This document shows positions 2,180 through 22,167 of a stretch of 32,000 nucleotides of DNA, piece after piece. Source of the stretch: Flavobacteriaceae bacterium (GTDB lineage: Bacteria; Bacteroidota; Bacteroidia; Flavobacteriales; Flavobacteriaceae). Below the pieces are notes generated by a model. That model was not told the DNA's origin and made no database searches. It was given only the letters and a program-made list of their open reading frames with translations. The stretch spans positions 660,001 through 692,000 of the forward strand of contig OZ245049.1 of assembly GCA_965224465.1 (NCBI GenBank), read 5' to 3'. Numbering within the stretch: position 1 is the first letter of the stretch; each line of letters opens with the position of its first letter. Position numbers and translations under genes: made by a program.

Positions 2180-2347
2180 CTAAGTCGGGAGACTTTGCGG
2201 AGCGGGGGTACTAGAGGTAACTTTACTATTAGCTACTGTTTTCTCCAAAGTAATTGTTTTATTTTTAAGGGTTTCAACAGTATTAAAACCAACAAACAGC
2301 AGTAAATTAAAGACTGCAACAACCAATATATAACCACTTTTTAGCAT
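2180..2347 (-). CDS. Possible 55-aa single-pass membrane peptide (MLKSGYILVVAVFNLLLFVGFNTVETLKNK...), below the ORF-track size cut-off
   Basis: Hand-translated. Its ATG (2345-2347) overlaps the stop of the upstream immunity gene in a TAATG arrangement. It has one hydrophobic helix. No equivalent ORF follows the orphan immunity gene at 7677, so it may be spurious. Confidence 0.25.
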   Translation of the reverse strand: MLKSGYILVVAVFNLLLFVGFNTVETLKNKTITLEKTVANSKVTSSTPAPQSLPT

Positions 2348-3357
2348 TAAACTATTTTGTTATTTTCTTCTTTTTCGAAAATGTGGAGAGTATTACTGTC
2401 ATCCAATAAATATAGCTTTCCTTTATGATACTCTATAGATTGTATTCTAACAAAAGTTTCTGATGGAAAATCTTCTAATAGTTCCAACTCCTGGTTTTCC
2501 GTATTAAAAAAACCAAACTTTACTTTTTCTCCTATTTGTCCTACAAACCATAGTTTGTTTTCGGAATATAAGTTTTTGTGAATTATAAAATCTTCCTGAA
2601 ATAAATCCGACACCTCTTTTTCTAAAACAACCTCTCCGTTTATAGGATTAAACACTTGGTATAATTTATTACTGCACCCATAAAGTAAATTTTCAAAACG
2701 ATTAAAGCAATGAGCTATTATAAACTTATCATTAATATTAACTTCAAAATACTCTTTCCAAAGAACTTCTCCTGAATCTTTATTTATCCCAACTAAAAAT
2801 TGATTGTCTTTTTCATTATAAGCTTCAATAAATAACACATCATCTATTACTTTTGGAGATAAATAGATAGTATAACCATCAGGTAATTGGTAGTTCCAGA
2901 GTCTTTTCCCGTTTAATGAATTTCTTAGATAAAATTTAGTTTTATCAAACCTTTCACTACAGAAAATAAGGCCTTTTATTGGAGTAATAGAATCAGTACC
3001 AGTATATGTCCATAATAGATTATAATTAAAATCAAATAAAGAATATTTTTTTTCCTTACGAGATAGTCTTTTCCTCCCAAATAAAACATTTTCTGAAACT
3101 ATTTTAAGTCCATCAAGCCCTTCGATACAAAATTTCTCAATTAGCTTATCATTAATAACTTTAAATAACTTTGAATTATCAAAAAAATATAAATCATTAT
3201 TTAAAGAAGAAAATTTCAACAGAGATAAATATTTCTTAAAACATATACCATTAATATAAGTTTTATCACCTTCTGCCAATGCATATAAAATATTTCCTGA
3301 AATATTTTTTAACCATGCACTACTTTGTCCCTTTATTTGTATATGTTTTCTTATCAT
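2347..3357 (-). CDS. Putative immunity protein for toxin paralog 2 (336 aa, possibly beta-propeller / PQQ-BamB-like repeats)
   Basis: The start overlaps the toxin stop (TAATG at 3355-3359). Repeated G-x-x-LW strand motifs (GKRLWNYQLP, GEVLWKEYF). Same size as the 339-aa ORF at 7677-8696 and the same C-terminal TLHIFEKEENN. The immunity role is inferred from position only. Confidence 0.6.
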   Translation of the reverse strand: MIRKHIQIKGQSSAWLKNISGNILYALAEGDKTYINGICFKKYLSLLKFSSLNNDLYFFDNSKLFKVINDKLIEKFCIEGLDGLKIVSENVLFGRKRLSRKEKKYSLFDFNYNLLWTYTGTDSITPIKGLIFCSERFDKTKFYLRNSLNGKRLWNYQLPDGYTIYLSPKVIDDVLFIEAYNEKDNQFLVGINKDSGEVLWKEYFEVNINDKFIIAHCFNRFENLLYGCSNKLYQVFNPINGEVVLEKEVSDLFQEDFIIHKNLYSENKLWFVGQIGEKVKFGFFNTENQELELLEDFPSETFVRIQSIEYHKGKLYLLDDSNTLHIFEKEENNKIV

Positions 3358-6300
3358 TATTGTTTTATAAGTTTAAATATATTTTCGAATTGACTTTCGA
3401 TTAAATCTTTTAATTCATCTGCGGTTTCAACTTGGAATTTATCAAATAACCTTTGATTTAAAGGTAAACCGTCAATTGCTTTTAGCATGTTTTCTTTAAA
3501 ATTCGGAGGATTTTTAGTACCGTTAAATATCCATTTTATATCGTCTAAGGATTGTGCATTGTTTAAGTCCTTTATAAATTGTTCGTTAAAATGACCTGGC
3601 GGCACCTTCTTAACTGATTTGAATTCGTAATATTTTACCCTTCGACTATTTGTAATATCAGCAACATCTACAAAGCGAGCTCCTCCAATATTTGTATAGT
3701 ATTCAAATTTGAGACTTTTACCTGAAAAATCATCTGAATGTTTACCTAAATAATAAACAATCCAATTGGCACCATCACTTTTAGCCTTTCCTTGTTTTAA
3801 ATCGCTTAAAACTTTATAAAAATCTTCTAGAATAATGTTTTTACCCGCTACATTTCTCCCGAAATCATCTAAATTCTTAACTACTGTTGAGTATGGTAAT
3901 CCATCTGCTCCTTTTAAAGACGTCAAAACTTCATCACTTAAACTAAGTGCTTTGAATGCAGGGCTTTTGCGTATGTCAGCAAAGGATTCCACAGCATCTG
4001 CTTTTTTAAACAATGGGTCGGAAACAGATTGTGGTTTCTCATATCGCTTTCTCAATAACTGCCAACTCTCTGCCAATTCTCCTCTTCGTGCAGCGTTTTC
4101 TCCTGTGCTTACAAATAATTTGCTTAAGCTGTTGGAAGTGTTAATGTCGGTTTTTAGGAGTGTTTTCTCTGCATCTGTTAATATAGTACTTGGAATCTCA
4201 TCAATCCAAGAGGGAATCTTAGATACCACCGTTGCGAGTTCATCCAATTGGCTTTTTATAAGTTGGGGGTTCGTATTGTTTTTTACATCGTTTAGGTCTA
4301 GCTTATTTATAAGTTTACGGTCTCCACTATGAATAACCGATGTAAGATGGAAATCTTCTGGATTTATTTCTGACAACCTTACCCTTTCTAGCGAAAAACC
4401 ATTAGTATTGTTCGCTTTCCTTGCTACGATACCATATAAATCATCAATCTTTCTCCCTGCTTTTAGACCTCCTTTTATATAGGCAGCACCAAAAAAAGGT
4501 ACAGCAGCTGACGCAGTATAAATAGTAAAATTTGTAGTATCGCTTCTTAGCCCAGCATATATTGCTCCAATAGGATCCGTTACAGTATCTGCTCCGGGCC
4601 ACATTCCTACAACGTCTAAAGTTCCATACATTACATCATCGAATAGAAATATTCCTTGAAAATCATAGAATTGCTCATCGGTTAACTCAGGGCTTAAATC
4701 AAGTGCAATTTCTACACCACTCCACCAAGTCCATTCTTCAACTGTTTCTTTCCATAGTCTAAATGTGTAGTTACCTTGTGTCTTTATCTCTATTGGACTA
4801 TCTGATTTTCCATTAGAACCATCAAAGTCCATATATACCTCTCTGAATTTTGCAATTTTATTTATATCCAACTTTTCCCAAAGAGACATATTAGCCAAGC
4901 CTCCTTGTTCTATTTCTACGGTTAATCCTTGCTCAATAAAGGAATTTACGCCTTTAATACATTCCGTGTATGTATTATTACTGTCTAAATAACAATTTCC
5001 ATCATGTTCACCACAGTGTGATAAATTTTCATTACGAGCTGAAAGACATGCTCTTTGCTTGTTGTAGGCTTCTTTAAATGATTTTGACCGATAAAAGGAA
5101 AGTGTCTTTATAAAAGTGGCTCCTCTAACATCATCTTTTGATTGATATAAATAATTCTGCAAGATTCCATCAGCATATTGATAGTATTTATTTACAATTA
5201 CTGGCTTTTTAATTGAAGCATATATACTCAATAAATACTCCAAACTATTACCATTTTTTCTAATAATGTTTTCATCAAACAATCCTTCATTGCTTTGGAT
5301 ATAAGCTGTTTCAGAGCACACAGTTGTAGACACTCCAAATAAGGATTCAAAAGGAGAACCATTAATAAGTACAAATACTATTTTTTTACTTTTATCAACA
5401 CTTTCCAATGCTTTATTCGCTATTTCACGCAACTGTGTGCTAGTGTATATGTTGTTGTTTTCGGTTCTTAATAAGCCTAGCACAAAATATGTATCTGTAT
5501 AATGGCTCAGTAAATGAAACTTATCCTCTAGTACATCCCATTGTTTTTCATTATCTGGTAACAACGAATTAGCTCCATCACTCAGAGAAAAAATATGCTT
5601 AAATTGCCCTTTAGTTCTATGCTTCGAAACCTTTGATTGATTAATTTCTGCTATTGCTTTTAATAATGATGTTTTTATTTCCCTTACAATACTATTATCA
5701 ACAATCAAATCATGGTTCATTTGTCTGCACCTAACATTTCCTTCCTCTTGTTTATTACCTGGTCTTATATCACATGTTCTAGCCGCTTCATACACTTGAC
5801 CTGTCGCCTGATTATTTACATGTACATTGTTTTCCGCATCAATATAAACTAACCTTGGTTCTTGATTAGTCTCTTCAAATTTATCAAACTTTATTTTTTG
5901 TCCTTTTTCATCTTTAACAAATGCTCCATTTCTATATTTCCAATAATATTTTTTATTATTACCTCTTATGGGATAAAATATATCACCCGACGAAAGTTCT
6001 CTTATTATAGAAATTCTTCCTATAGCTTCAGGGGTTTTAGAACCGACAAATGCAACAGGAACGTACCCTGCTCCTAAAATTATTGCATTCCCATATAGAT
6101 CTAAATAAGCATAATTTCTATTTTGGTACTCAACAGGAACACATACATAATCAAGTTTATCAAAGCTATATTCCCCTTCACCATCCCCATCAAAAATCCC
6201 AATCCTCAATTTCGGATTGTGTATGGCTTTCCAATGTACATAAGGTAAATGCTCTCCATTGTTATAATCTAGTAACCAATTGGTACTTCCTGTAGCATAT

Positions 6301-7535
6301 TTATAACTATGCGTAGAGAATGGATGTTTTAGTTGGAAGGCACCGTGGGCGAGTTCGTGTGCTACGGTTATCCCCCCAGCCCCAGAAGGGGGAGAATTTG
6401 CGGTAAAAATATAACCGAATTGTCTGCCTAATGGCATGAGTCCTTTTTCTCCTGCGGTGCTGGGCTGTTTGTCTGTTAAGATTAAATAATAAGCTTCAGG
6501 GTTAAAGTTACCATGCTCTTTTAATGCCTTATTTATACTACGCTGTTGCTCTGTGTATTGCGCTGCAAAGCCACTTTTTCCACTTTTTATAGTGCCGTCT
6601 GGTGTTAGACTGTTTAGGGTCGCTGTAAAATCGTTAATTACAGAAATATTTAGGCTAACTGCTGCTTGTTGGTAAATAGCTTTTAGTTTTTTTGTAATGG
6701 CACTTGTATTCGCATTTGAAGTATTTACCAATACTACGACCACTTCCTTTATGGCAATTTGGTATTGCATAAAAGCCCCTGCTATTTGGTATTTATCGCC
6801 TTGTTTTACTAAGGCTTGGGTTTCTATATCGGCATCGCTTAGCGTTCCTTTTAATTTTAAGGTGTAAGAAGTACTAGTACTATCTACTTTTTTCAGTCCT
6901 ACACCATCTTTGGTTTTAAAAATAATGTCTTGAGGTTTTATACTATCGTTGGTAATTTTAAAATTGGCAACAATAAATTCTACCGTCCCTTTAGCTACCG
7001 CTTTGTAGGGCATGTAATAATTTGCTCCCAACTTTTTGTACAAGTCCTTGGTTTGTGGCTGGCTTGGGCTGTAGGCGTCGAATCCAGTGGGCAGTGTTGC
7101 AGTAGGCAGTTGGGTGAACGTTACGGTGACACCTTGTGCGGTGATGTTGATGGCTTCTCCTTTGCTGTTTACGCCTGTGGTGTTTTCCACAGTGGTAGTA
7201 CCGCCTTCGGCTTGTGGACCTAATTCGGTTACATTTCCTTGTTCGTCTACATGGTGTTTTTTTGGTAGTACTGGTGGTTTTGCTTTGGAATCTCCGCTAT
7301 CGGTTATTATATAGTCCTCTCCTCCAGATAATTCTACAATAGGTGCACCGCCTTTTCCTACTAATAATATATCTCCGTTGCTTGGGTCTACTAGGATTTC
7401 TGCTATTTGGAAGTTCACCTGTTTTACTACATACGTTCCCTGCTGTTTTTGGATAGGGTTCTGCTGTGCTACTGCTATTTGAAAAAAGCAGGAACATAGG
7501 AATAGTAGGATTGTATGTAGGTTTTTATGTGGCAA
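3357..7535 (-). CDS. Giant secreted polymorphic toxin paralog 2 (1392 aa): signal peptide, zincin HEXXH domain, divergent middle region, nuclease-like C-terminal tip
   Basis: TTG start. Signal peptide MPHKNLHTILLFLCSCFFQIAVA/QQ. HELAH at residues 393-397 (nt 6345-6359). Residues 1-455 are near-identical to paralogs 1 and 3 and then diverge after GIFDGDGEGE. The ELAESW junction lies at nt 4062-4079. The last ~240 aa contain FVDVAD...YYEFKS, a D...ExK pattern. Confidence 0.8.
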   Translation of the reverse strand: MPHKNLHTILLFLCSCFFQIAVAQQNPIQKQQGTYVVKQVNFQIAEILVDPSNGDILLVGKGGAPIVELSGGEDYIITDSGDSKAKPPVLPKKHHVDEQGNVTELGPQAEGGTTTVENTTGVNSKGEAINITAQGVTVTFTQLPTATLPTGFDAYSPSQPQTKDLYKKLGANYYMPYKAVAKGTVEFIVANFKITNDSIKPQDIIFKTKDGVGLKKVDSTSTSYTLKLKGTLSDADIETQALVKQGDKYQIAGAFMQYQIAIKEVVVVLVNTSNANTSAITKKLKAIYQQAAVSLNISVINDFTATLNSLTPDGTIKSGKSGFAAQYTEQQRSINKALKEHGNFNPEAYYLILTDKQPSTAGEKGLMPLGRQFGYIFTANSPPSGAGGITVAHELAHGAFQLKHPFSTHSYKYATGSTNWLLDYNNGEHLPYVHWKAIHNPKLRIGIFDGDGEGEYSFDKLDYVCVPVEYQNRNYAYLDLYGNAIILGAGYVPVAFVGSKTPEAIGRISIIRELSSGDIFYPIRGNNKKYYWKYRNGAFVKDEKGQKIKFDKFEETNQEPRLVYIDAENNVHVNNQATGQVYEAARTCDIRPGNKQEEGNVRCRQMNHDLIVDNSIVREIKTSLLKAIAEINQSKVSKHRTKGQFKHIFSLSDGANSLLPDNEKQWDVLEDKFHLLSHYTDTYFVLGLLRTENNNIYTSTQLREIANKALESVDKSKKIVFVLINGSPFESLFGVSTTVCSETAYIQSNEGLFDENIIRKNGNSLEYLLSIYASIKKPVIVNKYYQYADGILQNYLYQSKDDVRGATFIKTLSFYRSKSFKEAYNKQRACLSARNENLSHCGEHDGNCYLDSNNTYTECIKGVNSFIEQGLTVEIEQGGLANMSLWEKLDINKIAKFREVYMDFDGSNGKSDSPIEIKTQGNYTFRLWKETVEEWTWWSGVEIALDLSPELTDEQFYDFQGIFLFDDVMYGTLDVVGMWPGADTVTDPIGAIYAGLRSDTTNFTIYTASAAVPFFGAAYIKGGLKAGRKIDDLYGIVARKANNTNGFSLERVRLSEINPEDFHLTSVIHSGDRKLINKLDLNDVKNNTNPQLIKSQLDELATVVSKIPSWIDEIPSTILTDAEKTLLKTDINTSNSLSKLFVSTGENAARRGELAESWQLLRKRYEKPQSVSDPLFKKADAVESFADIRKSPAFKALSLSDEVLTSLKGADGLPYSTVVKNLDDFGRNVAGKNIILEDFYKVLSDLKQGKAKSDGANWIVYYLGKHSDDFSGKSLKFEYYTNIGGARFVDVADITNSRRVKYYEFKSVKKVPPGHFNEQFIKDLNNAQSLDDIKWIFNGTKNPPNFKENMLKAIDGLPLNQRLFDKFQVETADELKDLIESQFENIFKLIKQ

Positions 7536-7605
7536 TATTTATTTGTTTATCATTTTTTTTTGTTCTATTTGCATCGCCGCTAAGTCGGGAGACTTTGCGG
7601 AGTGG
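6171..7605. repeat. Conserved toxin N-terminal block plus ~70 nt upstream, paralog 2 copy
   Basis: Near-identical to 771-2205. The coding part is near-identical to 13019-14390, which carries a 15-nt indel. Identity ends abruptly at the GEGE codons (6171). Confidence 0.9.
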
Positions 7606-7676
7606 GTTTTTATAATTCCTAATAATTCATCCGTTAAGCCTAGTTTATCTTTTACTGCTTTTGGTAACTTTCTAGT

Positions 7677-8696
7677 TTAAACTACAATGTTATTTTCTTC
7701 TTTTTCAAAAATATGGAGAGTGTTATCTTGGGTCTGAATATAAATGCGATTAGCATTCACATGAATACTCCCAATACCTCCATTTTCTGGTATAAATTCA
7801 TGTTTAAAAACTAGGTTTTTAGAATTCATATCTAAAACCCCAACTTTTGATTTATTATCTCCTAGTGTTTGTGTAAAATAGAAACAATCGTTTTTTACTG
7901 CACATCTATGGTCATGAATAGAATCAAAACCATTTTCTTTAATAAGGATATTAACATCCCATTCTTCTATTTCATTAGTAATAACATTGACTTTACATAA
8001 GATATTTTCAAATTTTGTGGTATAGATAAAATTGTTGTCTTTAAAAATACTAAATCCAAATCCATTATGCTTATATAGAACCTTTCCCGAATGCGCATCT
8101 AAACAAAATAAAGCGCCTTGCTCGTCTCCTGATACTGTAAAATAAATTTTATCAGATAATTCCAATATTTTACTACTTAAATAGGCTTTTTCTGAGTTAA
8201 TTAAATCAGAAAAATCGTGTTTCCAAGTTACACCCCTTGATTCAAAGCTATTAAACACTATTAAACCAGTATTATATCTGGAATCACCCGCTTGTATAAC
8301 ACCATAATTAGTAAATAATTTTTGTCCTCCATTTTGAAGGATAGGGATCTCTATAATTTTATCTGATTTAAAGATAATTTTACCTCTTTTTTTATAGGAT
8401 GCATAAGCAGTGTATTTAACGGAAAACACATAATAAAGATTTCCTTCAATTATAGCCTCTTGTCCGTCTTTGAAAGAATAGAAAAACGTTTTTTTATCTT
8501 GAAAATAATATATTCCATTCTTGTATCGACCAATTTGATTGGTTCTTTTAGATAACTGAATACTTGTCAGTAGATTATGTTGATTGTTATTTTCATATAC
8601 TAAAAGTTTGTTTTCAGTATTTTTAATACAAATTATATCTTTATCCATTAAAAGAATACCCGTATTTATCTTAATTGAGATATTAAATTTTATCAT
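7677..8696 (-). CDS. Putative immunity protein of the orphan toxin cassette (339 aa, same family as 2347-3357)
   Basis: Overlaps the end of the orphan toxin-tip reading frame by 4 nt. Shares size and the C-terminal TLHIFEKEENN with the 336-aa ORF. The 3'-terminal ~50 nt are highly similar to 2347-2400. Confidence 0.6.
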   Translation of the reverse strand: MIKFNISIKINTGILLMDKDIICIKNTENKLLVYENNNQHNLLTSIQLSKRTNQIGRYKNGIYYFQDKKTFFYSFKDGQEAIIEGNLYYVFSVKYTAYASYKKRGKIIFKSDKIIEIPILQNGGQKLFTNYGVIQAGDSRYNTGLIVFNSFESRGVTWKHDFSDLINSEKAYLSSKILELSDKIYFTVSGDEQGALFCLDAHSGKVLYKHNGFGFSIFKDNNFIYTTKFENILCKVNVITNEIEEWDVNILIKENGFDSIHDHRCAVKNDCFYFTQTLGDNKSKVGVLDMNSKNLVFKHEFIPENGGIGSIHVNANRIYIQTQDNTLHIFEKEENNIVV

Positions 8697-9522
8697 AAAA
8701 AAATTAATTTAAAATTAGAATCAACGAAGTTATCGATATGAATATTAGTTATTATATCATCAAGTTCATCAAAATTAAAAAAGTTTCTGAACTTTTTAGA
8801 TTTAATTTCGTCAACCCCATCAATTATACTTTGAATTGAACCCTTATTTTCTTTCAACCAGGTCTTTAACTTTTCCGCAGTCATTTCTGTTTTATCCATA
8901 CGATATTGAATTTCATTTAAATTATCCGCGTTAAACAAATCTCGTTCAATAAATTGCTCTTTTATAGTTTTACTAGATATACTTCCTGGTCCACTTTTGT
9001 ATTCTGTTTTTAAATTTCCGGGTGTACAATTAACACAAAACAAATCAATACTCGAATCATTATTAGTAGCTCTTGCATTGGGTACAGAATGCTCAAACCT
9101 AAGCTTTTTCCCTGCAAACTCTTTCCCGTTTGCATTTAAATCCCTTAAAACCCAATGTGCTCCTTGCTTTTGATTGTTGGTACCATTTTTAAAGGTACTT
9201 ACTATTTTATCAAATTATCTATGGTTGTGTTTGGGTTCTGATGTACGAATTGACCAAACTTATTTAAATCGTTTAACACATCGGCATAAGATGCAGAAAG
9301 TGTTCCCGTTTTATATCCATTTAAAGACGCTAAAACTTCATCACTCAAACCAAGGGGTTCGAATGCAGGGCTTTTTCGTATGTCTGCCAAGGCCTGTATA
9401 GCATCCGTATTTCTTGTTAAGCCTATTGCTGGGTTATTCCCTCCTGTTCTTTTATTTATGTGTAATAACTGCCAACTCTCTGCCAATTCAAGTTTCTGAG
9501 CGGGTTCAATAATTATAAAACG
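8693..9522 (-). pseudogene. Orphan (N-terminally truncated, frameshifted) toxin C-terminal cassette, homologous to the tip of paralog 2
   Basis: The frame is open from the stop of the upstream gene: ...PAQKLELAESWQLLH...ADIRKSPAFEPLGLSDEVLASL... (ORF 9202-9486). It continues in the -1 frame as FDKIVSTFKNGTNNQKQGAHWV...SSIDLFCVNC...KTEYKSG (to 8693). This aligns with paralog 2 residues ELAESWQLLRK...ADIRKSPAFKALSLSDEVLTSL...EDFYKVLSDLKQGKAKSDGANWIV...YYEFKS. The frameshift is at the T3 run (plus-strand aaa, 9212-9214). There is no start codon, signal peptide or N-terminal region. Confidence 0.75.
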
Positions 9523-10251
9523 TTATAAAACTGAACCATCTATTTGTAAAACACTACCATCAGAAATATTATATTTACTAGTCATAACCAATAATTTCTT
9601 CTTTAGTTTGGTGTAATACGGATGCCATTCAGTTAATCCTTCTTCTTCATCAAACATCAATGAATCTACCCATTTCAATCTTCTTTCAAACTCTGGATCA
9701 TTACATAGTTTTGAGATAATCAATAATCTAAAAAGCCATGCTGCCCCACCTGCTATAATTTCATGCCCATATTTCCCATCTACTTCTAATTGATTTACCT
9801 TTGCTAAAATATTCGGTAAAAAACTGTAATGTTCTACAAATTTAAACCCCGACTTTTCTAAATAATTTACTAGCCAATCAGCAAATTCTTCAACCTCCTC
9901 CTTCTTTTTAAAGAAATTGTACATGTATTTATTTTTGAATAAAGTCTTAAAACTAAAATCTTTTACAGAGTTTAAAAAAAGTTCATCTTTAGGCTTATAA
10001 CTAATTAGCGTATTTGTTGGTATCCCAATGTTCAGAATAACATCTTCTACTTCAAAAATTGAAGGCATTAAAGAACTAGCTCCAATAGTTCCATTTTCAT
10101 TAAAATTAAACACACAAAAATAAACCTTGTCATCAAACCTTTTGAGATAGCTTAGACCTGGTCTAGAATTTAATAATTTATAACTTCTTTCTAATAACAA
10201 GAAATTTAACCTATCAAATATAATTTTTTTTCTTACTTTTTTTTCAATCAT
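9523..10251 (-). CDS. Putative immunity protein for toxin paralog 3 (242 aa, no recognisable motif)
   Basis: The ATG directly abuts the stop of the 1381-aa toxin ORF, on the same strand. Role inferred from position only. Confidence 0.55.
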   Translation of the reverse strand: MIEKKVRKKIIFDRLNFLLLERSYKLLNSRPGLSYLKRFDDKVYFCVFNFNENGTIGASSLMPSIFEVEDVILNIGIPTNTLISYKPKDELFLNSVKDFSFKTLFKNKYMYNFFKKKEEVEEFADWLVNYLEKSGFKFVEHYSFLPNILAKVNQLEVDGKYGHEIIAGGAAWLFRLLIISKLCNDPEFERRLKWVDSLMFDEEEGLTEWHPYYTKLKKKLLVMTSKYNISDGSVLQIDGSVL

Positions 10252-13200
10252 TTAATTTACTTTTTTAATTAGTTCAATTGTTAAATTATCTATATCGTTT
10301 GCTGAGCCATGATCTGCAATTTTAAATATTTTTTGGTTAGATACCTTAAGAATATCATTTTCATTAAGATCAAATTCTAATTTAGTGTACTTCAATTTCA
10401 TCTCAGTTTGTCCATTAATAATAGCTCCAAAACCTTCTTTTTGTCGAATAGTAAATCCTGTTTTTTGACTCAATTTATTTTCAATGATAATAACATCTAT
10501 AATTTCATTTGTAGATTTACTTCTTTTTATTAGTACAATATCTGCTTTCATAAATCCATTTTTAGTTATTAATGGTATTTCCGTCAAAACTTGATAATCT
10601 TCTAGTCTCTTAATTCCAATACTATTTGTTAACTTAGCAATAAATGAAGGATTACTTTTATCGTTTATAAGTGTAACAATATTTTCTCCCAATTTCCTTC
10701 CTTCTGCAGAATAATGTTGAAATCGTTCAATATTCTTACTGCGTTTAATCCAATTTGACAGTTTAGTATCTTCATTTCGTCTTAATACTTCACCAATGAT
10801 ATCAAACTCATCAATACTAAGGTTCGCCCCTTTATGTGAGGTGATTCCTTTAACATATACTATATTTTCTTCTTTATTTAAAAGATTTAAAAACTCTTCA
10901 TCACAATCATCAATAAACTTAGATAAAGTAGATTTACCATCTACATCTGTTAATCTTTTTATCAAATTTTGATTACTCTTATTTAATTTACTGAATTTCT
11001 CAATTTTAATAGGGTCGGTTTTGACAAAAGATTTTGGATTAAATTTATGTAATACTTTCCAACTCTCTGCCAATTCAAGTTTCTGAGCAGGACTTTTACC
11101 ATCAAACAAGATACGTAAACCGCTATTTATATCGGTTTTTAAGGCCTTTTTTAATTCGTCCGTAAAAGAGATAGGTAAATCGGATAAAAAGTTGAGTAAG
11201 TTGTCTATTTTCTCCAATGGTAAACCATCAACTCTAGCCCATTGCTTAGCCTCATCCAAATTAGCACTCATGGAGGATGAAAAATGTTTTTCACCTTTGC
11301 TTAGATCTACAATATAATTAGGATCATGTATCGAAAAATGAGTTATAATCTTGCTATTATCTGTATGTGATATAATTTTAAATCGTTTGGCAGATTTTAA
11401 TGCAAATACGCCGTATTGTGTTACTCCAACCGCTACAACACTAACACCATACATACTAGCCTCTACGTAATCTCGTTCTTTGATTGCATAGATTATACCT
11501 ATAGCGTCGGGTATAAAATCTAAGCCTGTTGGGGCGAGCATTAAGGAAGCTACATCAATTTTATCGTACACCAATTGTTTTTCATCAACAACTTTATACA
11601 GATGTTCATTTGTTAATGCGAAATACTGCCCATCGGCAAATTTTACATTTGCCATATAATTTGATAAAAAATCCGATTTGTATTTATCAAAATGGAATTT
11701 TGCATAACTAATTCCTATATGTTCTAAACCTGCCTTTTTTACACTTGCGATATAAGGTTCTCTTAAATTTACAGGGTTATTATCTACAGGTAGATAATAA
11801 TTCTCAGACTTATTTACAAAAGCTAATCTATCATTTTCAATTGCTTTTTTAAGTTCCTGTTCATACCCCTCTTTCCAAATCCTGTACTTTTCAATATATT
11901 CGGGTCGTAATATAATACCGTATCCATCACCAGTTTTAACGCTTTTAAAAGGATTTGGTCTCTTTGCTTCTATTCTTTTTACTGCATCAAAAGAGGGACT
12001 TTTTAATAATACCAAATGATTGATAAATGGATAGCCCTTTACATGTGTATTATTTGCTTTATAGATAGATTTTATTTCTCCCGATGCATTAAAAATTACA
12101 AATTGTAATTGTACAGGCTTTGGAATTTCTTTGTAGAAATTTAAAAAATCACTATTAAAACTCTCTTTCTCTTTAAAATTAAACGATACCGATTCAAGTT
12201 CACCATTTCCATAACCACTACTATTATAACAATCAGTTGTATAATCGGTAAATAAAAAATTCTGTTCATAGCTACGGGATACTAAAATAAGCCCTGTATT
12301 TATGACTCCTTCCTTATCAATAGCTGTTTTAGCCATTGTTTGTAATTGAACATCGTTATATAAAGTATTAGTACCGGTTTTAAGAAAAATAACCAATACC
12401 TTATTTCCTGTATGATACTGTAATAACCGTAGTTTATCTTCGTATACCTGAAGTTTAGATGCTTCTAATAGTGAATTATTTCCTATAAAACCAAAATGTT
12501 TAATCTCTCTATTTGGCGGGTATTCCGTTGCACTGTCATTTATTTCACTATATAACAAGGCAAACTTCTCATTAACGGCATTTTGATGTGTTTCTAATAT
12601 GGAGTCATAGTATGTAAATTGTTTGCATTTGTTCCCTTTAGGTTTTTCTTTACAGTTTACAGCTATCGTTTTAGTTATAATTTTTGAAGTAGAATCAATT
12701 TTCTTTCCTTTATGTTTTTTTGCCTCTTTCCATGTTGTTTGGTATAATTTATTATTACATGGAGCTATATAGTGAAACCAATATACCTTTTTACTTTCAT
12801 CAGATAAATCCACCAATTTAATCGGTAATTTCTCACCTCCAAAAACATAATCATTTCCATTTGCTACATATTCTTTTCCTTTAAAATTAATCCCCCTTAC
12901 CGCACCTTGCGGGATGTTAGTAGCATTGGGAACAGAACTTATAGAAGAATACGTAATAGAATCATTAACAAATGTAAAAGGCTGCCAATTAGCAGTTAAA
13001 AATACACGCTTTGATAATTCCCCTTCACCATCCCCATCAAAAATCCCAATCCTCAATTTCGGATTGTGTATGGCTTTCCAATGTACATAGGGTAAATGCT
13101 CTCCTTTGTTATAATCTAGTAACCAATTGGTACTTCCTGTAGCATATTTATAACTATGAGAAGAAAACGGGTGTTTTAGCTGGAATGCACCGTGGGCGAG

Positions 13201-14397
13201 TTCGTGTGCTACGGTTATCCCCCCAGCCCCAGAAGGGGGAGAATTTGCGGTAAAAATATAACCGAATTGTCTGCCTAGAGGCATTAAACCACTTTCTGTG
13301 TTGCTATTTCCGCTGGCATCCACAGGCTGTTTGTCTGTTAAGATTAAATAATAAGCTTCAGGGTTAAAGTTACCATGCTCTTTTAATGCCTTATTTATAC
13401 TACGCTGTTGCTCTGTGTATTGCGCTGCAAAGCCACTTTCTCCACTTTTTATAGTGCCGTCTGGTGTTAAACTGTTTAGGGTCGCTGTAAAATCGTTAAT
13501 TACAGAAATATTTAGGCTAACTGCTGCTTGTTGGTAAATAGCTTTTAGTTTTTTTGTAATGGCACTTGTATTCGCTTTTGAAGTATTTACCAATACTACG
13601 ACCACTTCCTTTATGGCAATTTGGTATTGCATAAAAGCCCCTGCTATTTGGTATTTATCGCCTTGTTTTACTAAGGCTTGGGTTTCTATATCGGCATCGC
13701 TTAGCGTTCCTTTTAATTTCAACGTATAGGAAGTACTAGTACTATCTACTTTTTTCAGTCCTACACCATCTTTGGTTTTAAAAATAATGTCTTGAGGTTT
13801 TATACTATCGTTGGTAATTTTAAAATTGGCAACAATAAATTCTACCGTCCCTTTAGCTACCGCTTTGTAAGGCATGTAATAAGCTGACCCTAACTTTTTG
13901 TACAAGTCCTTGGTTTGTGGCTGGCTTGGGCTGTAGGCGTCGAATCCAGTAGGCAGTGTTGCAGTAGGCAGTTGGGTGAACGTTACGGTGACACCTTGTG
14001 CGGTGATGTTGGTGGCTTCTCCTTTGCTGTTTACGCCTGTGGTATTTTCCACAGTGGTAGTACCGCCTTCGGCTTGTGGACCTAATTCGGTTACATTTCC
14101 TTGTTCGTCTACATGGTATTTTTTTGGTAGTACTGGTGGTTTTGCTTTAGGGTCTCCGCTGTCGGTTATTATATAGTCCTCGCCTCCAGATAATTCTACA
14201 ATAGGTGCACCGCCTTTTCCTACTAATAATATATCTCCGTTGCTAGGGTCTACTAGGATTTCTGCTATTTGGAAGTTTACCTGTTTCACTGCATACGTTC
14301 CTTGCTGTTTTTGGATAGGGTGCTGCTGTGCTACTGCTATTTGAAAAAAGCAGCTGCATAGGAATAATAGGATTGTATGTAGGTTTTTAGGATTCAA
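10252..14397 (-). CDS. Giant secreted polymorphic toxin paralog 3 (1381 aa): signal peptide, HEXXH domain, divergent middle region, different nuclease-like C-terminal tip
   Basis: TTG start. Signal peptide MNPKNLHTILLFLCSCFFQIAVA/QQ. HELAH codons at 13192-13206. ELAESW at 11059-11076. The tip contains ADIVLIKRSKSTNEIIDVIIIENKLS, a D...ENK pattern. Confidence 0.8.
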   Translation of the reverse strand: MNPKNLHTILLFLCSCFFQIAVAQQHPIQKQQGTYAVKQVNFQIAEILVDPSNGDILLVGKGGAPIVELSGGEDYIITDSGDPKAKPPVLPKKYHVDEQGNVTELGPQAEGGTTTVENTTGVNSKGEATNITAQGVTVTFTQLPTATLPTGFDAYSPSQPQTKDLYKKLGSAYYMPYKAVAKGTVEFIVANFKITNDSIKPQDIIFKTKDGVGLKKVDSTSTSYTLKLKGTLSDADIETQALVKQGDKYQIAGAFMQYQIAIKEVVVVLVNTSKANTSAITKKLKAIYQQAAVSLNISVINDFTATLNSLTPDGTIKSGESGFAAQYTEQQRSINKALKEHGNFNPEAYYLILTDKQPVDASGNSNTESGLMPLGRQFGYIFTANSPPSGAGGITVAHELAHGAFQLKHPFSSHSYKYATGSTNWLLDYNKGEHLPYVHWKAIHNPKLRIGIFDGDGEGELSKRVFLTANWQPFTFVNDSITYSSISSVPNATNIPQGAVRGINFKGKEYVANGNDYVFGGEKLPIKLVDLSDESKKVYWFHYIAPCNNKLYQTTWKEAKKHKGKKIDSTSKIITKTIAVNCKEKPKGNKCKQFTYYDSILETHQNAVNEKFALLYSEINDSATEYPPNREIKHFGFIGNNSLLEASKLQVYEDKLRLLQYHTGNKVLVIFLKTGTNTLYNDVQLQTMAKTAIDKEGVINTGLILVSRSYEQNFLFTDYTTDCYNSSGYGNGELESVSFNFKEKESFNSDFLNFYKEIPKPVQLQFVIFNASGEIKSIYKANNTHVKGYPFINHLVLLKSPSFDAVKRIEAKRPNPFKSVKTGDGYGIILRPEYIEKYRIWKEGYEQELKKAIENDRLAFVNKSENYYLPVDNNPVNLREPYIASVKKAGLEHIGISYAKFHFDKYKSDFLSNYMANVKFADGQYFALTNEHLYKVVDEKQLVYDKIDVASLMLAPTGLDFIPDAIGIIYAIKERDYVEASMYGVSVVAVGVTQYGVFALKSAKRFKIISHTDNSKIITHFSIHDPNYIVDLSKGEKHFSSSMSANLDEAKQWARVDGLPLEKIDNLLNFLSDLPISFTDELKKALKTDINSGLRILFDGKSPAQKLELAESWKVLHKFNPKSFVKTDPIKIEKFSKLNKSNQNLIKRLTDVDGKSTLSKFIDDCDEEFLNLLNKEENIVYVKGITSHKGANLSIDEFDIIGEVLRRNEDTKLSNWIKRSKNIERFQHYSAEGRKLGENIVTLINDKSNPSFIAKLTNSIGIKRLEDYQVLTEIPLITKNGFMKADIVLIKRSKSTNEIIDVIIIENKLSQKTGFTIRQKEGFGAIINGQTEMKLKYTKLEFDLNENDILKVSNQKIFKIADHGSANDIDNLTIELIKKVN
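12248..14390. repeat. Paralog 3 segment repeated at 1-2128 (N-terminal block plus ~250 codons of the middle region)
   Basis: Read by eye: position 1 aligns with 12248, with scattered SNPs and one replaced patch (1021-1085 versus 13261-13340). Confidence 0.9.
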
Positions 14398-14415: not shown

Positions 14416-15057
14416 TTATAGTTGCCGTGCAGCTGCGGTAGTTTCTACTTCTTCAAAAACACAGCCTTTGAAATTATTGGCCTCCAGAGCTCTCCTTAAA
14501 TCTTCCCTTACAAATATTATTGTTGATTTTTCTTTCGTTCTAAAAATAGCAGGAAAGCCTTCTTTTGGTTCTTTTAAAACTAATTTTTTGATTCCTCTTA
14601 CTCCCTTTGAACTATATTTTGGAACTCTATAAACAGAATTTTCAAAATCAAAGTAACTATCCAGTTTGGGTAATCTTAATGCTAAATAATCTTCATTTGT
14701 TGGGATAGAATTATTTAACTCTAAATTATTCAAGAACCTATCTTTCAGACAAGTATCATCAAACATTATAACAGGAACTACATTGAATTTGAATTCGATG
14801 AATTTTTCAAAAACTTCCTTGACTTTTTTACTAACAATAAATATTCCTGAATTTGTAAAAGGAAAGTCAAACTTTGGTATATGAAAAAAATTAGCATCAA
14901 AATACAAATTATTCGGAAGTAATTCTACGTCATATAAGTTAGGGTTTGAAAAATAATAACATACTTTATCACTACCTTCAAAAGGCAAAAGTATAGCATC
15001 ATAATCAGGATCTGTTTTTCTGTTAGTATTTAATATTATTTTAAATTTTTTTGTCAT
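14416..15057 (-). CDS. Hypothetical protein, possibly an Imm11/Imm43 (DUF1629)-like immunity protein
   Basis: 213-aa ORF lying 18 nt upstream of toxin paralog 3. The C-terminal pattern FPAIFRTKEKSTIIFVREDLRRALEANNFKGCVFEEVE resembles, from memory, the ...FR....v.e.....l.....G..F..v ending of DUF1629-type immunity proteins. Unverified. Confidence 0.4.
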   Translation of the reverse strand: MTKKFKIILNTNRKTDPDYDAILLPFEGSDKVCYYFSNPNLYDVELLPNNLYFDANFFHIPKFDFPFTNSGIFIVSKKVKEVFEKFIEFKFNVVPVIMFDDTCLKDRFLNNLELNNSIPTNEDYLALRLPKLDSYFDFENSVYRVPKYSSKGVRGIKKLVLKEPKEGFPAIFRTKEKSTIIFVREDLRRALEANNFKGCVFEEVETTAAARQL

Positions 15058-15160: not shown

Positions 15161-15325
15161 TCACGCAGACTTGAAATCCGTGCGTCCCCTCATACACAAC
15201 AACTAACCCATAAATAACATACAAATATCTAATGCATTTTTTAAGATTTGCATGAGCAGCCTTATGTGATGTACTTTGTGGGCACGGATTTCAACCTTAA
15301 ATCCGCATGTCTAGACACAAAATAA

Positions 15326-15358
15326 ACCGCAAGACCTTTGTTTACAAAGGCTTGCGGT
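15326..15358 (+). terminator. Strong hairpin inside the IS left end, upstream of the transposase start (possible read-through blocker)
   Basis: accgcaag(a)cctttg-ttta-caaaggcttgcggt: a 14-bp stem with one bulge and a 4-nt loop, followed by a partly T-rich stretch. Confidence 0.35.
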
Positions 15359-15402
15359 TCTCAGTATTTTCACCTAAATTGGTGTTACGCAAAAGACTGA
15401 TT

Positions 15403-16698
15403 ATGAAGGTACTAAATTCAACTCACATTAACCCATTTGGTGGAATAAATTTTGTTTTTGAGGAATTAAACAAGCTTAAAATAGATGAGATTTTATCCGA
15501 TAATTTACCTCCATTACCTACACAATCGAAATATGATTGGAAGGATCTTTTATACTCTTTTTGGTCTATCTACTTTTGCGGAGGAAACTGTATTGAAGAC
15601 TTATCTATCAACCTAGGCAGTCACCTGAGAAACAACCCAATGGTTAAGGTACCTAGTCCTGATAGAGTTTTAGATAGATTTAAGGAACTAGCTATTCCTG
15701 AAGTTCTTTTTTCAGTTCCAAGAGGTAAAAGTCTTCATCAATTTAGTTTACATACAGAATTGAATGAACTTAATTTAAAAATTTTAAAAAAAATAGGATT
15801 ATCAAAAACAGAGAACTACACTTTAGACTACGACAATACTATTATTTTCACAAATAAAGCAGATAGCAGAAGAAGCTATAAAAAAGATTTTGGCTACTGT
15901 CCAGGTGTAGATATCATTGGGAATAACATTGTTTATGTTGAGAACAGAAATGGAAATAGCGATGCAAAAACACTACAATTTCAATCACTCACTAGAATGT
16001 TTTCTCTATTAGAAGAACAAAATATTAATATAGAATCATTTAGGGCAGACGGTGCTTCTTTTCAATACGATATTGTTAAACTAGTTGAAAAAAAGACTAA
16101 AACTTTTTTCCTTAGAGCGGTTATGAGTGGTGCTTTAGCTCAAAGGATTTCCCTTATTGATACTTGGGAAAAAGTAACATTAGGAGGAGAAGAAGCTTAC
16201 CGAGGAGAAATAAAATATACGCCTTTTATTAGAACAGCAAAAAGGAGAAAAAACAACAACAATTTAAAAGAATACCGCTTAGTTGTTACAAAAGTAAAAA
16301 GAGAAGATAATCAAATAAATGCTTTTACTAATGAAGCCTACAACTACTCAGCAGTACTAACAAATGATTATGAGAAAACGGCAACAGAAGTAGTTTTTTT
16401 CTACAATCAAAGAGGAGCTATAGAAAAAGAATTTGATGTTCTTAAAAATGATTTTGGATGGGACAATTTACCTTTTTCAAAACTAGAGCAAAACACAGTT
16501 TTCTTACTGTTTACTGCTATTTTCCGTAATTTATATCATCATATAATTTGTTCCTTCTCAAAAATATATAAAAATTTAAATCCTTCTTTTAGAATTAAAA
16601 AATTCATTTTTAGATTTATTACAACACCTGCAAAATGGATACAAAATGCTAGACAAAATAAACTAAGAGTTTATGGAAAGCTCCTTTACAACACGTAA
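15403..16698 (+). CDS. IS1380-family DDE transposase
   Basis: The ORF track opens at 15307, but that ATG lies inside the terminal IR, so MKVLNSTHINPFGG at 15403 is the likelier start. Blocks match ISEcp1-type transposases as I recall them: TLDYDNT..., FRADGASF..., FYNQRGAIEKEFDVLKNDFGW. Confidence 0.8.
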   Translation: MKVLNSTHINPFGGINFVFEELNKLKIDEILSDNLPPLPTQSKYDWKDLLYSFWSIYFCGGNCIEDLSINLGSHLRNNPMVKVPSPDRVLDRFKELAIPEVLFSVPRGKSLHQFSLHTELNELNLKILKKIGLSKTENYTLDYDNTIIFTNKADSRRSYKKDFGYCPGVDIIGNNIVYVENRNGNSDAKTLQFQSLTRMFSLLEEQNINIESFRADGASFQYDIVKLVEKKTKTFFLRAVMSGALAQRISLIDTWEKVTLGGEEAYRGEIKYTPFIRTAKRRKNNNNLKEYRLVVTKVKREDNQINAFTNEAYNYSAVLTNDYEKTATEVVFFYNQRGAIEKEFDVLKNDFGWDNLPFSKLEQNTVFLLFTAIFRNLYHHIICSFSKIYKNLNPSFRIKKFIFRFITTPAKWIQNARQNKLRVYGKLLYNT

Positions 16699-16979
16699 AA
16701 ACAACGAGTACGTAGCACTAAAACTTATCAGCAATAAAAAAACCTAAAACTTAGGGGAAATAACTACACCCTTCTTTTAAAAATCATTTGATTTTTAAAA
16801 TATGAAAAGTTAAAAAACATCTCTATCAAAAAAAACAATTCAAATATTCAGATTCCTGAAGTTATATATCGATATTAGATTAAATATTAAAGACATGCGG
16901 ATTTAAGGTGCAAATCCGCGCTATCACGTAGAAGGTATGGTCAAGTAGGAACAAGAAATTTCACCTCATTCCTCTCACA

Positions 16980-17025: not shown

Positions 17026-17501
17026 CTATACTTCTGCATACCCAACTTGCCAATGATAGAAAAGATATGGATAATGTTTCTGTATTTTTCTCAAATATAC
17101 AAATCCTTTTTTCCTACTCCCTTTAAATCTTTTGTACTTGTTAAGTATCCATTTTACTAACCGATTATGTAAATTCCGAAACACCTTTACGAGACTTCTA
17201 TGACTAAACTTACCGTAATATTGAACCCATCCACGAATTTTTGAATTTAGCTCCTTCGCTATATCTACAAAATTTGCCCCCGTCCATCTATGTAATTGCA
17301 GATCTTTAAAAAAAGCTACTATTTTTGAATATTTAACCGTACTTATTGTACAGTCAAACCCTAAAAACATACCTCCTTTATTAGATGCTTTACTTTCTGG
17401 ACGAAAACTAAAACCAAGAAAATCAAACTTGACTTTCTTACCCTTTAAATTTCTCCGATAGTCTTTACAGTATACAATTACCGTCTTTTCAGGGTGAACT
17501 T
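17026..17501 (-). pseudogene. Group II intron RT/maturase, C-terminal fragment (end of RT domain plus X/maturase domain, no En domain)
   Basis: The frame continues from the IS junction: (LEVHP)EKTVIVYCKDYRRNLKGKKVKFDFLGFSFRPESK...GWVQYYGKFSHRSL...HWQVGYAEV*. Confidence 0.85.
17492..17501. repeat. Left 10-bp target-site duplication (gggtgaactt) of the ISAs1-family IS
   Basis: Identical to 18731-18740. Removing the IS and one TSD copy restores ...QCDLEVHPEKTVIVY... in the RT frame. Confidence 0.9.
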
Positions 17502-18730
17502 CAGGGAATTCGCATTTAAACTTTTCGTAAATCTCTAATAAATACCCTATCTTTGTAAGAGTTATCAGAAGGTCTGATAATAAAAAAAATGACTACAAAA
17601 GGTCCAGAATTAGAAAGAAATATCTTTGAAGAGAGTTTTTCCTCCCTTAAAGATCCACGAAGAACTTCAAAAGGAAACATCAGACACTCAATTAAAGAAA
17701 TACTATTCCTTACCTTGTCAGCTGTTATAAGCGGCTGTAACACATGGTGTTTAATTGAGGAATTTGGAAACTTAAAAATAGAATGGTTACGAAAATTTCA
17801 TCCTTATGCATCTGGAATTCCTTCTCATGATACTTTAGGAGCTTTTTTTAGCGCCCTAGATTCTAAGAAGTTTTCAAAATGTTTTATCAACTATGCTGCA
17901 TCTATTTCTACACATACAGAAGGAGATGTTATTTCCTTAGATGGGAAAACGGTTAGAGGAATTGGATCGAGAGTAAGAAAATATCCGATTCATATTGTAT
18001 CTGCATTTTGTTCAAAAAACCATCTGTCTTTAGCGCAAGAAACAGTAAATAAAAAAGAAAACGAGATAGTAGCTATTCCAAGATTACTAGAGTTAATTAC
18101 TATAAAAGGGTGCATTATTACTATTGATGCCATGGGGTGCCAGAAGAAAATAGCTGCAAAAATCAGAGAAAGAGAAGCAAATTATCTCTTGCAAGTAAAA
18201 GGAAATCAATCTGATTTAAAAGAACAAATTATCAAAATATTTAACCGAAAGACTTCTAGAAGCACAGCCGTTATGTATGAATGTGACCATGGTAGAATTG
18301 AGAAAAGGACTTGTCAGACAATCAATGATTTAACTTTTTTAGACGGAAAAGAACACTGGAAGGACTTGAAAACAATTGTAAGAATTGAATCTTATAGAGA
18401 ATATAAAAAAACGGGGAAATCCTCAAATACTTTCAGATATTATATTTCTTCACTCCCTATGGACGCAGAACTTATAAATAAATCTGTTAGAAGTCATTGG
18501 GCTATAGAAAACAACTTACATTGGAATTTAGATGTTATTTTTAAGGAAGATTATCAACTAAAACGAAAAGGAGATTCTGTAGAAAACTTTAATATGATCA
18601 CTAAAGTAGCTTTAGCATTATTAGATAATGAGAAATCAACTAAAAAATCTAAACCAACTAAAAGATTTAAGGCTTCATTAGATGATAGTTATAAAGAGTT
18701 AATTATGAATCTTTAAATGCGAATTCCCTG
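17502..18730 (+). mobile_element. ISAs1-family insertion sequence inserted in the group II intron RT gene
   Basis: Perfect 19-bp terminal IRs: cagggaattcgcatttaaa at 17502-17520 and tttaaatgcgaattccctg at 18712-18730. It is flanked by a 10-bp TSD and contains a 375-aa transposase ORF. Confidence 0.9.
17589..18716 (+). CDS. ISAs1-family (H-repeat-associated type) DDE transposase
   Basis: DPRRTSKGNIRHSIKEILFLTLSAVISGCNTWCLIEEFG, DGKTVRG, IDAMGCQKKIA, VKGNQ and SHWAIENNLHWNLDVIFKED closely parallel E. coli YhhI-type ISAs1 transposases. Confidence 0.9.
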   Translation: MTTKGPELERNIFEESFSSLKDPRRTSKGNIRHSIKEILFLTLSAVISGCNTWCLIEEFGNLKIEWLRKFHPYASGIPSHDTLGAFFSALDSKKFSKCFINYAASISTHTEGDVISLDGKTVRGIGSRVRKYPIHIVSAFCSKNHLSLAQETVNKKENEIVAIPRLLELITIKGCIITIDAMGCQKKIAAKIREREANYLLQVKGNQSDLKEQIIKIFNRKTSRSTAVMYECDHGRIEKRTCQTINDLTFLDGKEHWKDLKTIVRIESYREYKKTGKSSNTFRYYISSLPMDAELINKSVRSHWAIENNLHWNLDVIFKEDYQLKRKGDSVENFNMITKVALALLDNEKSTKKSKPTKRFKASLDDSYKELIMNL

Positions 18731-18740
18731 GGGTGAACTT
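18731..18740. repeat. Right 10-bp target-site duplication (gggtgaactt) of the ISAs1-family IS
   Basis: Identical to 17492-17501 and directly abuts the right IR. Confidence 0.9.
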
Positions 18741-19524
18741 CTAAATCACATTGTTTTAGTCGCTCTTGCAATTGTTGTAATACATGCTCTGCCTGTGATT
18801 CGCTTACACAGTGTATTATAATATCATCTGCATACCGTGCAAACCGTAGATCCTCAAACTCTTTATCCATCCATTTATCAAACGCATAATGCAAATACAA
18901 ATTAGCCAACAAAGGACTTATTACTCCGCCTTGTGGAGTGCCTTTACCTTGACGTGCTTCTAATTTACCATCTGCCGTTAATTTGGGCGCTTCTAACCAC
19001 CGTCTTATGTACATTTTTATCCATTTTTCTGATACATGCCTATCTAACGCAAGTAATAACTTGGTATGATTAACATTGTCAAAAAACTTTTTGATATCTA
19101 AATCTACAACCCATGCGTATTTGCGAACATTATCTTTTACTTTTGATAATGCTTGATGCGCACTTTTTAATGGTCGATACCCATAAGATGAATCGTGAAA
19201 TTCCAATTCCAAAACTGGCTCTAACAAGTTTTTAATTACCTGTTGTCCTATTCTATCTGCAACTGTTGGAATGCCTAAACTACGTGTTTTACCCCCTCCT
19301 TTGGGTATTTCTACTTCTTTTACCGCTGGCGGAAAATAGCTTCCCGAAGCCAATCGATTCCATAGGCTATACAAATTGTTTTCCAAATTTTCTTCAAACT
19401 GTTGAATACTCACTAGATCAACTCCTGCACTTCCTTTATTCGATTTAACTTTCTTAAAAGCTTTCCACACCATCGCTTTACTAATTGGTAATGGTTTTGC
19501 TTTCTCTTTAAAAATCCTACTCAT
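18741..19524 (-). pseudogene. Group II intron RT/maturase, N-terminal fragment (RT domains 0-7 with YADD)
   Basis: MSRIFKEKAKPLPISKAMVWKAFKKVKSNKGSAGVDLVSIQQFEENL...GIPTVADRIGQQV...GTPQGGVISPLLANLYLH...RYADDIIIHC. The ORF-track tail REFAFKDS* is read-through into the IS end. Confidence 0.9.
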
Positions 19525-22153: not shown

Positions 22154-22167
22154 AATATCATATTTTG

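Follow-up and report, generated by a model that had tools for sequence, protein, structure and literature searches.

It is textbook knowledge for CdiA and Rhs toxins that displacement of a toxin tip leaves behind an orphan tip together with an immunity gene that is retained. A 32,000-nt stretch of the genome of a Flavobacteriaceae bacterium (GenBank assembly GCA_965224465.1, contig OZ245049.1, positions 660,001 to 692,000; hereafter the window, numbered from 1) raises the question of how a toxin tip without a start codon came to lie, together with an intact downstream gene, between two full-length toxin genes. On the minus strand and in the direction of transcription, the gene order is an Imm11-family gene, the toxin gene paralog 3, a 242-aa open reading frame (ORF), the orphan segment (9522-7677), the toxin gene paralog 2, a 336-aa ORF, and the toxin gene paralog 1. 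It is very probable that the orphan segment represents the displaced C-terminal toxin domain and the cognate immunity gene of a flavobacterial polymorphic toxin with a Sec signal, a reading that covers its history as well as the role it would have retained.

Anatomy of the orphan tip and its adjoining gene

The orphan segment consists of the following parts:

9505-9522, minus strand: joint of 18 nt between the stop of the paralog 3 immunity gene and the orphan, unlike either full-length gene and without a usable start or leader
9504-8693, minus strand: whole orphan tip, a toxin C-terminal domain of 271 aa once repaired
9212-9504, minus strand: orphan tip up to the frameshift (PAQKLELAESWQLLH...TTIDN), forming the N-terminal, helical half of the domain, delimited by translation, BLASTP against paralog 2, and tblastn
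9212-9214, minus strand: frameshift site, T3 on the coding strand (AAA on the plus strand), where one added T restores TTIDN-F-DKIV
8693-9214, minus strand: orphan tip after the frameshift (FDKIV...KLIFL), with its stop TGA at 8695-8693, containing the predicted catalytic core
7677-8696, minus strand: orphan immunity gene, intact, 339 aa, a predicted BamB/PQQ-like beta-propeller, assigned from homology to the paralog 2 immunity gene and from its position 3' of the tip

The paralog 3 immunity ORF ends in TAA at 9525-9523, and the codons that follow in the same frame read RFIIIEPAQKLELAESWQLLH... An earlier note on this DNA, made from the letters alone, had described a tip-like frame directly after this stop that lacks a start codon, a signal peptide, and an N-terminal domain, and this is what was found: the 5' side of the orphan tip has no ATG, no signal peptide, and no delivery domain. 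A possible upstream start or leader was also checked and none is present, an in-frame TAA lying six codons before PAQKL, the residues that precede the motif ELAESW at the tip's beginning. The sole start-like codon there is a mechanical TTG inside ELAESW.

The likeness of the segment to the tip of paralog 2, likewise claimed in the earlier note, is detected by alignment software: the repaired 271-aa tip shares 35% identity with the paralog 2 tip over 208 residues (BLASTP, E=4e-26), in an alignment that spans the break and includes the matches ADIRKSPAF, LSDEVL, and NFDKIV~DFYKVL. The first tip frame stays open until a TAG right after ...TTIDNLIK, and the second runs from FDKIVSTFKNG to the TGA at 8695-8693. 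The break was located by tblastn with five relatives, for which frame -3 ends at 9211 and frame -2 begins at 9214, with the query F common to both; this switch coincides with the T3 run at which the note had placed the break. An extra T in that run gives IDNFDKIV, and at the same position the relatives have NFD, NFQ, NFS, or GFE. The open stretches of the orphan segment exceed chance expectation, the longest being 173 codons compared with a maximum of 134 in 2000 shuffles. All conserved core residues are kept in the orphan tip, and the frameshift is the sole visible lesion. Programmed -1 frameshifting at AAT-TTG was considered and rejected, there being no slippery heptamer, and no start codon either way.

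The 339-aa ORF downstream is intact, as had been claimed, and its ATG (8696-8694) overlaps the tip stop as ATGA, i.e., by 4 nt. Its product shares 27% identity (E=6e-10) with the 336-aa paralog 2 immunity protein, and the 3' ends of the two genes are 88% identical over 49 nt. A genome scan yielded 10 loci, all in Bacteroidota, and in 10/10 of them a homologue of the 339-aa ORF lies directly 3' of a tip homologue; toxin followed by immunity gene is the standard order of polymorphic toxins (PMC3482391). In addition, the identity of the tip rises and falls with that of the immunity protein (Spearman 0.64, p=0.035, n=11). By homology and position, the 339-aa ORF is placed and behaves as a cognate immunity gene would, and is a putative neutraliser of the tip. 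Weak PQQ_2 matches occur in 11/16 members of the immunity family (best E=5.5e-5), with scores of 17.4 bits for the orphan immunity protein and 13.5 bits for that of paralog 2, both under the 27.6-bit cut-off, and Beta-prop_ACSF4 matches occur in 3 members. Most likely, the immunity protein, a predicted beta-propeller, binds and blocks the tip.

Junction repeat and proposed displacement

The probable history of the orphan was read from its 5' edge and from the surrounding full-length genes, namely:

10252-14397, minus strand: paralog 3, full-length toxin of 1381 aa, which has a signal peptide, a HELAH motif, and PAQKLELAESW as its junction
11059-11091, minus strand: upstream copy of the junction repeat, within paralog 3, identical to 9472-9504 at 32/33 nt
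9523-10251, minus strand: paralog 3 immunity gene, 242 aa, with a stop codon in the reading frame of the orphan tip, which it closes
9472-9504, minus strand: downstream copy of the junction repeat (PAQKLELAESW), at the orphan 5' edge, identical to 11059-11091 at 32/33 nt
3357-7535, minus strand: paralog 2, full-length toxin of 1392 aa, identical to database protein P0027, with the in-window homologue of the orphan tip as its own tip
2347-3357, minus strand: immunity gene of paralog 2, 336 aa, paralogous to that of the orphan

The downstream copy of the repeat (9504-9472) reads CCCGCTCAGAAACTTGAATTGGCAGAGAGTTGG; homology fades beyond it, and the 18 nt at 9522-9505 match nothing. The two copies lie 1587 nt apart and have between them exactly the current tip of paralog 3 with its immunity gene, a footprint such as C-terminal displacement would be expected to leave. 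The 15 nt encoding PAQKL are of the paralog 3 type of body, paralog 2 having NAARRG there; past ELAESW, the orphan resembles paralog 2 (QLL), and 26/26 nt match the paralog 2 junction over ELAESWQLL. Paralog 3 is the presumed former carrier of the orphan tip.

The paralog 3 gene would thus formerly have ended in the orphan tip. An incoming cassette, made up of the junction, the present paralog 3 tip, the 242-aa immunity gene, and the 18-nt flank, would have recombined at the PAQKLELAESW-encoding sequence, and its insertion would have duplicated the 33 nt and moved the old tip and its immunity gene downstream. The old tip would thereby have been left without start codon, signal peptide, and delivery scaffold, and a later loss of one T from a T4 run would have broken its frame. 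An intragenomic source for the cassette is possible, because the tip of paralog 3 is also found on paralog 1 (P0026). Displacement and orphan models for cdi and rhs loci have been set out (PMC4927057), the displacement model also in Jackson et al. 2009 (PMC2935791).

What the module might still do was judged from the same features. Re-fusion via recombination of the 33-nt repeats is mechanically possible, and an active toxin would result only upon reversion of the frameshift. The reservoir for tip replacement that the earlier note had envisaged is therefore weaker than a retained-immunity or fossil role, because the tip is frameshifted and the homology for re-fusion is just 33-44 nt. No terminator-like site was found within 7400-10400, and since none intervenes up to paralog 3, transcription reading through from paralog 3 could supply the orphan immunity gene and is probably how it is expressed. 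When expressed, the retained immunity gene would shield the cell from neighbours that still deploy the orphan-type tip. Candidate promoters of its own were rejected: a sigma-70 promoter scan returned fewer sites than shuffles, with a model that is not applicable to Bacteroidota, and a Bacteroidetes -7 motif (TAnnTTTG) at 8777-8770, 74 nt 5' of the immunity ATG, is no evidence given 13 occurrences in 15 kb.

The three full-length toxin paralogs stand in tandem on the minus strand (1-2135, 3357-7535, and 10252-14397); paralog 1 starts near 2135 and extends past the left end of the window. They have in common a signal-peptide-like N-terminus (MPHKNLHTILLFLCSCFFQIAVAQQ) and the HELAH motif, and Pfam showed no domain above threshold in the window's large paralogs. 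Paralog 1 corresponds to database protein P0026 (1372 aa), with a body ~99% identical to that of paralog 3 and the same tip. Paralog 2 becomes divergent after ~residue 445, with an overall identity of 49%. The ~105 nt 5' of paralogs 1 and 2 are nearly identical, and paralog 3 begins 18 nt past the Imm11-family gene.

That gene, an Imm11/Imm43-family immunity gene (Pfam E=1e-10) at 14416-15057 (minus strand), lies directly 5' of paralog 3. Beside it, at 15282-16921, is an insertion sequence (IS) bounded by 31-nt terminal inverted repeats and encoding a DDE transposase (15307-16698). The Imm11-family gene may be another orphan immunity gene, its toxin severed by the IS. The paralog 3 tip itself (10252-10560, minus strand) shows a D...ExK-like pattern (KADIVLI...IIIENKLSQ) that is kept in its homologue at locus L007, in a Flavobacterium metagenome-assembled genome (MAG); it has no Pfam match and, from this pattern, may be a restriction-endonuclease-fold nuclease too. 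At L007, a homologue of the paralog 3 immunity protein is likewise encoded 3' of the paralog 3-like tip. Positions 1-3615 of L007 repeat the cassette order of the window: a paralog 3-like tip (50% identity), its immunity gene (34%), a truncated orphan-type tip, and its immunity gene, with an IS200/RAYT-like gene separating the two toxin/immunity modules. With two cases only, the shared order could be coincidence or block transfer of cassettes.

Relatives of the tip, its predicted activity and further elements of the window

The tip gave no match in Pfam, NCBIfam, or PADLOC. Word-indexed searches found 7 tip relatives only, and a profile raised the count to 25; a HMMER profile search of 1.84 billion representatives returned 476 tip clusters (counted at 50% identity), 111 of them at E<=1e-30. 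The tip domain extends to the C-terminus in 125 of the best 150 profile matches. These best 150 include 56 long carriers, 57 short proteins with a near-complete tip, and 34 N-terminally truncated ORFs, some of which were possibly cut by contig ends. Among 29 long carriers that were scanned, fn3 was present in 14, PT-HINT in 8, and a two-partner secretion (TPS) domain with hemagglutinin repeats in 1; the consensus of the long carriers contains the same HExxH segment as the window paralogs. A search of other genomes for full-length toxins bearing the tip, which the earlier note had proposed, did find them: the tip terminates full-length proteins at L001 (1907 aa), L003, and L004, with PT-HINT just 5' of the tip in the last two. 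Its C-terminal position and varied carriers therefore mark the tip as a mobile toxin module at the C-terminus of polymorphic toxins.

The N-terminal scaffold has relatives in Tenacibaculum, Polaribacter, Gelidibacter, Oceanihabitans, Apibacter, and Flavobacterium. The Pfam toxin domains that they carry, PF14412 (AHH), PF14424 (deaminase), PF03496 (ADP-ribosyltransferase), and PF13930 (NS endonuclease), confirm the scaffold as a polymorphic-toxin body, and none of the fn3/HExxH scaffold, the tip, and the immunity family matches a Pfam or NCBIfam model. Large conserved ORFs (826-1442 aa) lie 5' of full-length carriers in other genomes, at L001 2559-5036, L006 1525-4065, L003 2-5249, and L004 3-5158, and L003 and L004 have an additional ~310-aa ORF 5' of the carrier. 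These conserved upstream ORFs, which have no significant Pfam match and no counterpart in the window, are candidates for partners of the toxin scaffold in export or in an accessory role.

Decayed tip copies beside a full-length immunity ORF recur in other genomes, namely at L002, L005, L007, and L009. At L002 (Myroides), the frame is broken at the tip start; at L005 (Hymenobacter), a 169-aa stump lies 3' of a full toxin with a paralog 2-like tip; at L007, the tip is interrupted by the IS200/RAYT-like gene; and at L009, a frameshift lies within the tip. At L011, the immunity gene is fragmented too.

With residues numbered from the E of ELAESW, D149, E163, K165, and S166 of the tip are invariant in 27 sequences, and E133, Q179, F180, and D184 nearly so (E133 and Q179 conserved at >=90%); the D, E, and K of the core are also invariant across the 29 long carriers. 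The codons of the core residues are:

9094-9092, minus strand: E133
9046-9044, minus strand: D149
9004-9002, minus strand: E163
8998-8996, minus strand: K165
8956-8954, minus strand: Q179

An AlphaFold2 (AF2) model from the 27 sequences (predicted local distance difference test, pLDDT, 83.5; predicted template modelling score, pTM, 0.74) places helices (H) and strands (E) as H105-120, E129-137, E145-153, E160-162, and H173-185, a predicted alpha-beta-beta-beta-alpha core; an earlier AF2 model from 8 sequences had a low-confidence core. A signature of E, D, ExK, and Q is tabulated for Tox-REase-1, -6, and -7 (PMC3482391). The order of elements in the model, together with this signature, points to a metal-dependent nuclease of the restriction-endonuclease (PD-(D/E)xK) fold, an assignment that stands about as good a chance of being right as of being wrong. 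A more tentative proposal is that the tip and its partner form an uncharacterised pair, in which a divergent restriction-endonuclease-fold nuclease would be neutralised by a whole beta-propeller, carried on a Flavobacteriia-specific fn3/zincin scaffold that the conserved upstream gene pair of the relatives could export. To our knowledge, a propeller-type immunity architecture does not appear in published catalogues of polymorphic toxin immunity proteins. No type V, VI, or IX secretion system (T5SS, T6SS, or T9SS) signature is present.

Elsewhere in the window, a second small polymorphic toxin pair is encoded at 20530-21051 and 27910-28620 (minus strand), accompanied by small ORFs at 20213-20548 and 27134-27907. 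These small secreted toxins have their first ~41 residues in common (MNSLFKIF...SSERLEELA), are wholly divergent thereafter, and each have a different small ORF after them, Imm49 (E=2e-24) in one case. Zhang et al. 2012 (PMC3482391) pair Imm49, as immunity protein, with Tox-REase-1 and -6. A ~2.8-kb near-exact duplication (21168-24005 and 28737-31574) contains genes for two tyrosine recombinases and for a YoeB/ParE-like toxin-antitoxin pair; it is adjoined by a primase-like gene (24082-26622), the 3' end of which is repeated at 31651-31950. The duplicated segments look like two copies of an integrative mobile element carrying the small toxins. Lastly, a group II intron-type reverse transcriptase (RVT_1, E=5e-40) is apparently split by an opposite-strand IS with a DDE transposase (17026-17370, 17589-18716 on the plus strand, and 18703-19524).

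Alternative explanations and comparison with known systems

The one-base loss could be an assembly or sequencing error, in which case the orphan tip would be an uninterrupted silent cassette, directly redeployable via the junction repeat. A single lesion in ~810 nt, with open stretches that are otherwise stop-free and catalytic residues that are all kept, would suit such an error, and the source, one contig of 5.24 Mb, is suggestive of a long-read assembly, a type of assembly prone to homopolymer indels. Nevertheless, this explanation is unlikely: the run is just 3-4 T, which is short for a homopolymer error, no stray frameshifts occur in the long paralogs (1381 and 1392 aa) or in the window's duplicated segments, and orphan copies elsewhere (L002 and L009) have frame breaks too. 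It is improbable that the module is what is left, at the 3' end, of a fourth full-length tandem paralog that lost its body by deletion, with no incoming cassette. With at least three full-length paralogs arrayed in tandem and in the same direction, unequal recombination or deletion is plausible; however, just 15 nt of body are retained 5' of ELAESW, and they sit in a near-perfect repeat that brackets one cassette. The junction location fits insertion and is not expected for a random deletion end-point, and no trace of the conserved ~105-nt upstream region of the paralogs is present within 9505-9522.

The two other explanations concern what the parts are. An unrelated beta-propeller gene (e.g., accessory or periplasmic) lying downstream by happenstance would account for the 339-aa ORF having no match to a recognised immunity family, just weak PQQ_2/BamB-like matches. 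This is quite improbable for an ORF that is found directly 3' of the tip in 10/10 loci from several Bacteroidota families, often with overlapping stop and start, whose divergence follows that of the tip, which persists beside truncated tips, and of which paralog 2 has a paralogous copy in the same position. Small signal-peptide versions of the tip do exist (L006, P0003, P0006, and P0008), and the fragment might be such a free-standing secreted toxin gene minus its 5' end; this is hardly credible, since PAQKLELAESW and its DNA match the paralog 3 type of body/tip junction and not a signal-peptide linker.

Several findings weigh against the reading as a displaced tip with its immunity gene, or against its functional parts. 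The source genome is present once in the databases, and the orphan immunity protein forms a singleton cluster. ELAESW was considered as a family-wide pretoxin or demarcation motif and rejected, as it is missing from nearly all scaffold relatives. The Pfam matches behind the beta-propeller assignment are sub-threshold. Pfam contains several Tox-REase models, and no match in Pfam, NCBIfam, or PADLOC ties the tip to a nuclease; PDB sequence and profile searches gave nothing relevant for the tip, and Foldseek against the PDB with the 27-sequence AF2 model gave no neighbour and no restriction-endonuclease-fold match. The sole BFVD match is apparently another member of the same toxin family and gives no functional lead. 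This entry, A0A8S5LH46, is a 918-aa fragment from a 'Siphoviridae sp.' metagenome contig, annotated as 'Metallo-peptidase family M12' and filed under viral sequences.

Displacement of the old tip and its immunity gene, as proposed here, brings no conceptual change, as the mechanism is already known, and its value is descriptive: the same evolutionary process is documented in a Flavobacteriia polymorphic-toxin scaffold that domain databases do not recognise, with an unusually clean recombination footprint, a 33-nt direct repeat around exactly one cassette. A toxin-domain family (~476 clusters at 50% identity) and a partner immunity family are also delimited; both families lack annotation, and the predicted catalytic residues can be tested. 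Moreover, the presence of an intact immunity gene next to a dead toxin leads to the prediction that the competitors of the source organism include, or recently included, strains that deploy this tip.

The earlier note had likened the module to the orphan C-terminal (CT)/immunity modules of cdiA and rhs loci. The structural part of this comparison holds, but the parent genes are neither cdiA nor rhs. Like orphan cdiA-CT/cdiI and rhs-CT/rhsI modules, the window module consists of a start-less tip and an immunity gene that lie 3' of a full-length pair in the same orientation; in those modules too, the tip is promoterless, keeps a short homology to the parent gene, and is often degraded beside an intact immunity gene (Poole et al. 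2011; Jackson et al. 2009, PMC2935791; Koskiniemi et al. 2014, PMC3967940; Ruhe et al. 2016, PMC4927057). In contrast to CdiA, paralogs 2 and 3 have no TPS domain, no filamentous haemagglutinin (FHA) repeats by Pfam, and no VENN at the junction, and no cdiB-like ORF is present in the window, although a TPS domain is present in one distant protein that bears the tip. Compared with Rhs, paralogs 2 and 3 show no RHS_repeat match or PxxxxDPxGL motif, and the window has no T6SS gene. The parent genes of the window instead encode a scaffold of Flavobacteriia that has a signal peptide and contains an HExxH motif. Relative to cdi and rhs orphans, the retained homology is very short (33-44 nt), and the ELAESW junction is local to the source genome. 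The TANFOR-domain toxins of Bacteroidetes are described (PMC7073777) as large secreted proteins with variable C-terminal toxins and adjacent immunity genes, as here; membership of this class is unsupported, with no Pfam domain above threshold in the window paralogs.

With Tox-REase-1, -6, and -7, the tip shares the signature (E133, D149, E163-x-K165, and Q179) and a predicted core at the extreme C-terminus; it differs in having no significant sequence or structure match to a known restriction-endonuclease family or PDB entry, and in its partner, a ~340-aa beta-propeller-like protein and not Imm49, Imm-PA2201, Imm23, or Imm54. The signal-peptide-only 'T2SS' class and the cassette arrays of Zhang et al. 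2012 (PMC3482391) have, like the window, a constant 5' body, a variable 3' toxin cassette followed by an immunity gene, and silent toxin-immunity cassettes downstream, and they have in common with relatives of the tip the PT-HINT releasing domain. Unlike those systems, the window's fn3/HExxH scaffold, tip, and immunity family are without a Pfam or NCBIfam match. The finding is best seen as a typical orphan tip/immunity module, in unannotated toxin, immunity, and scaffold families.

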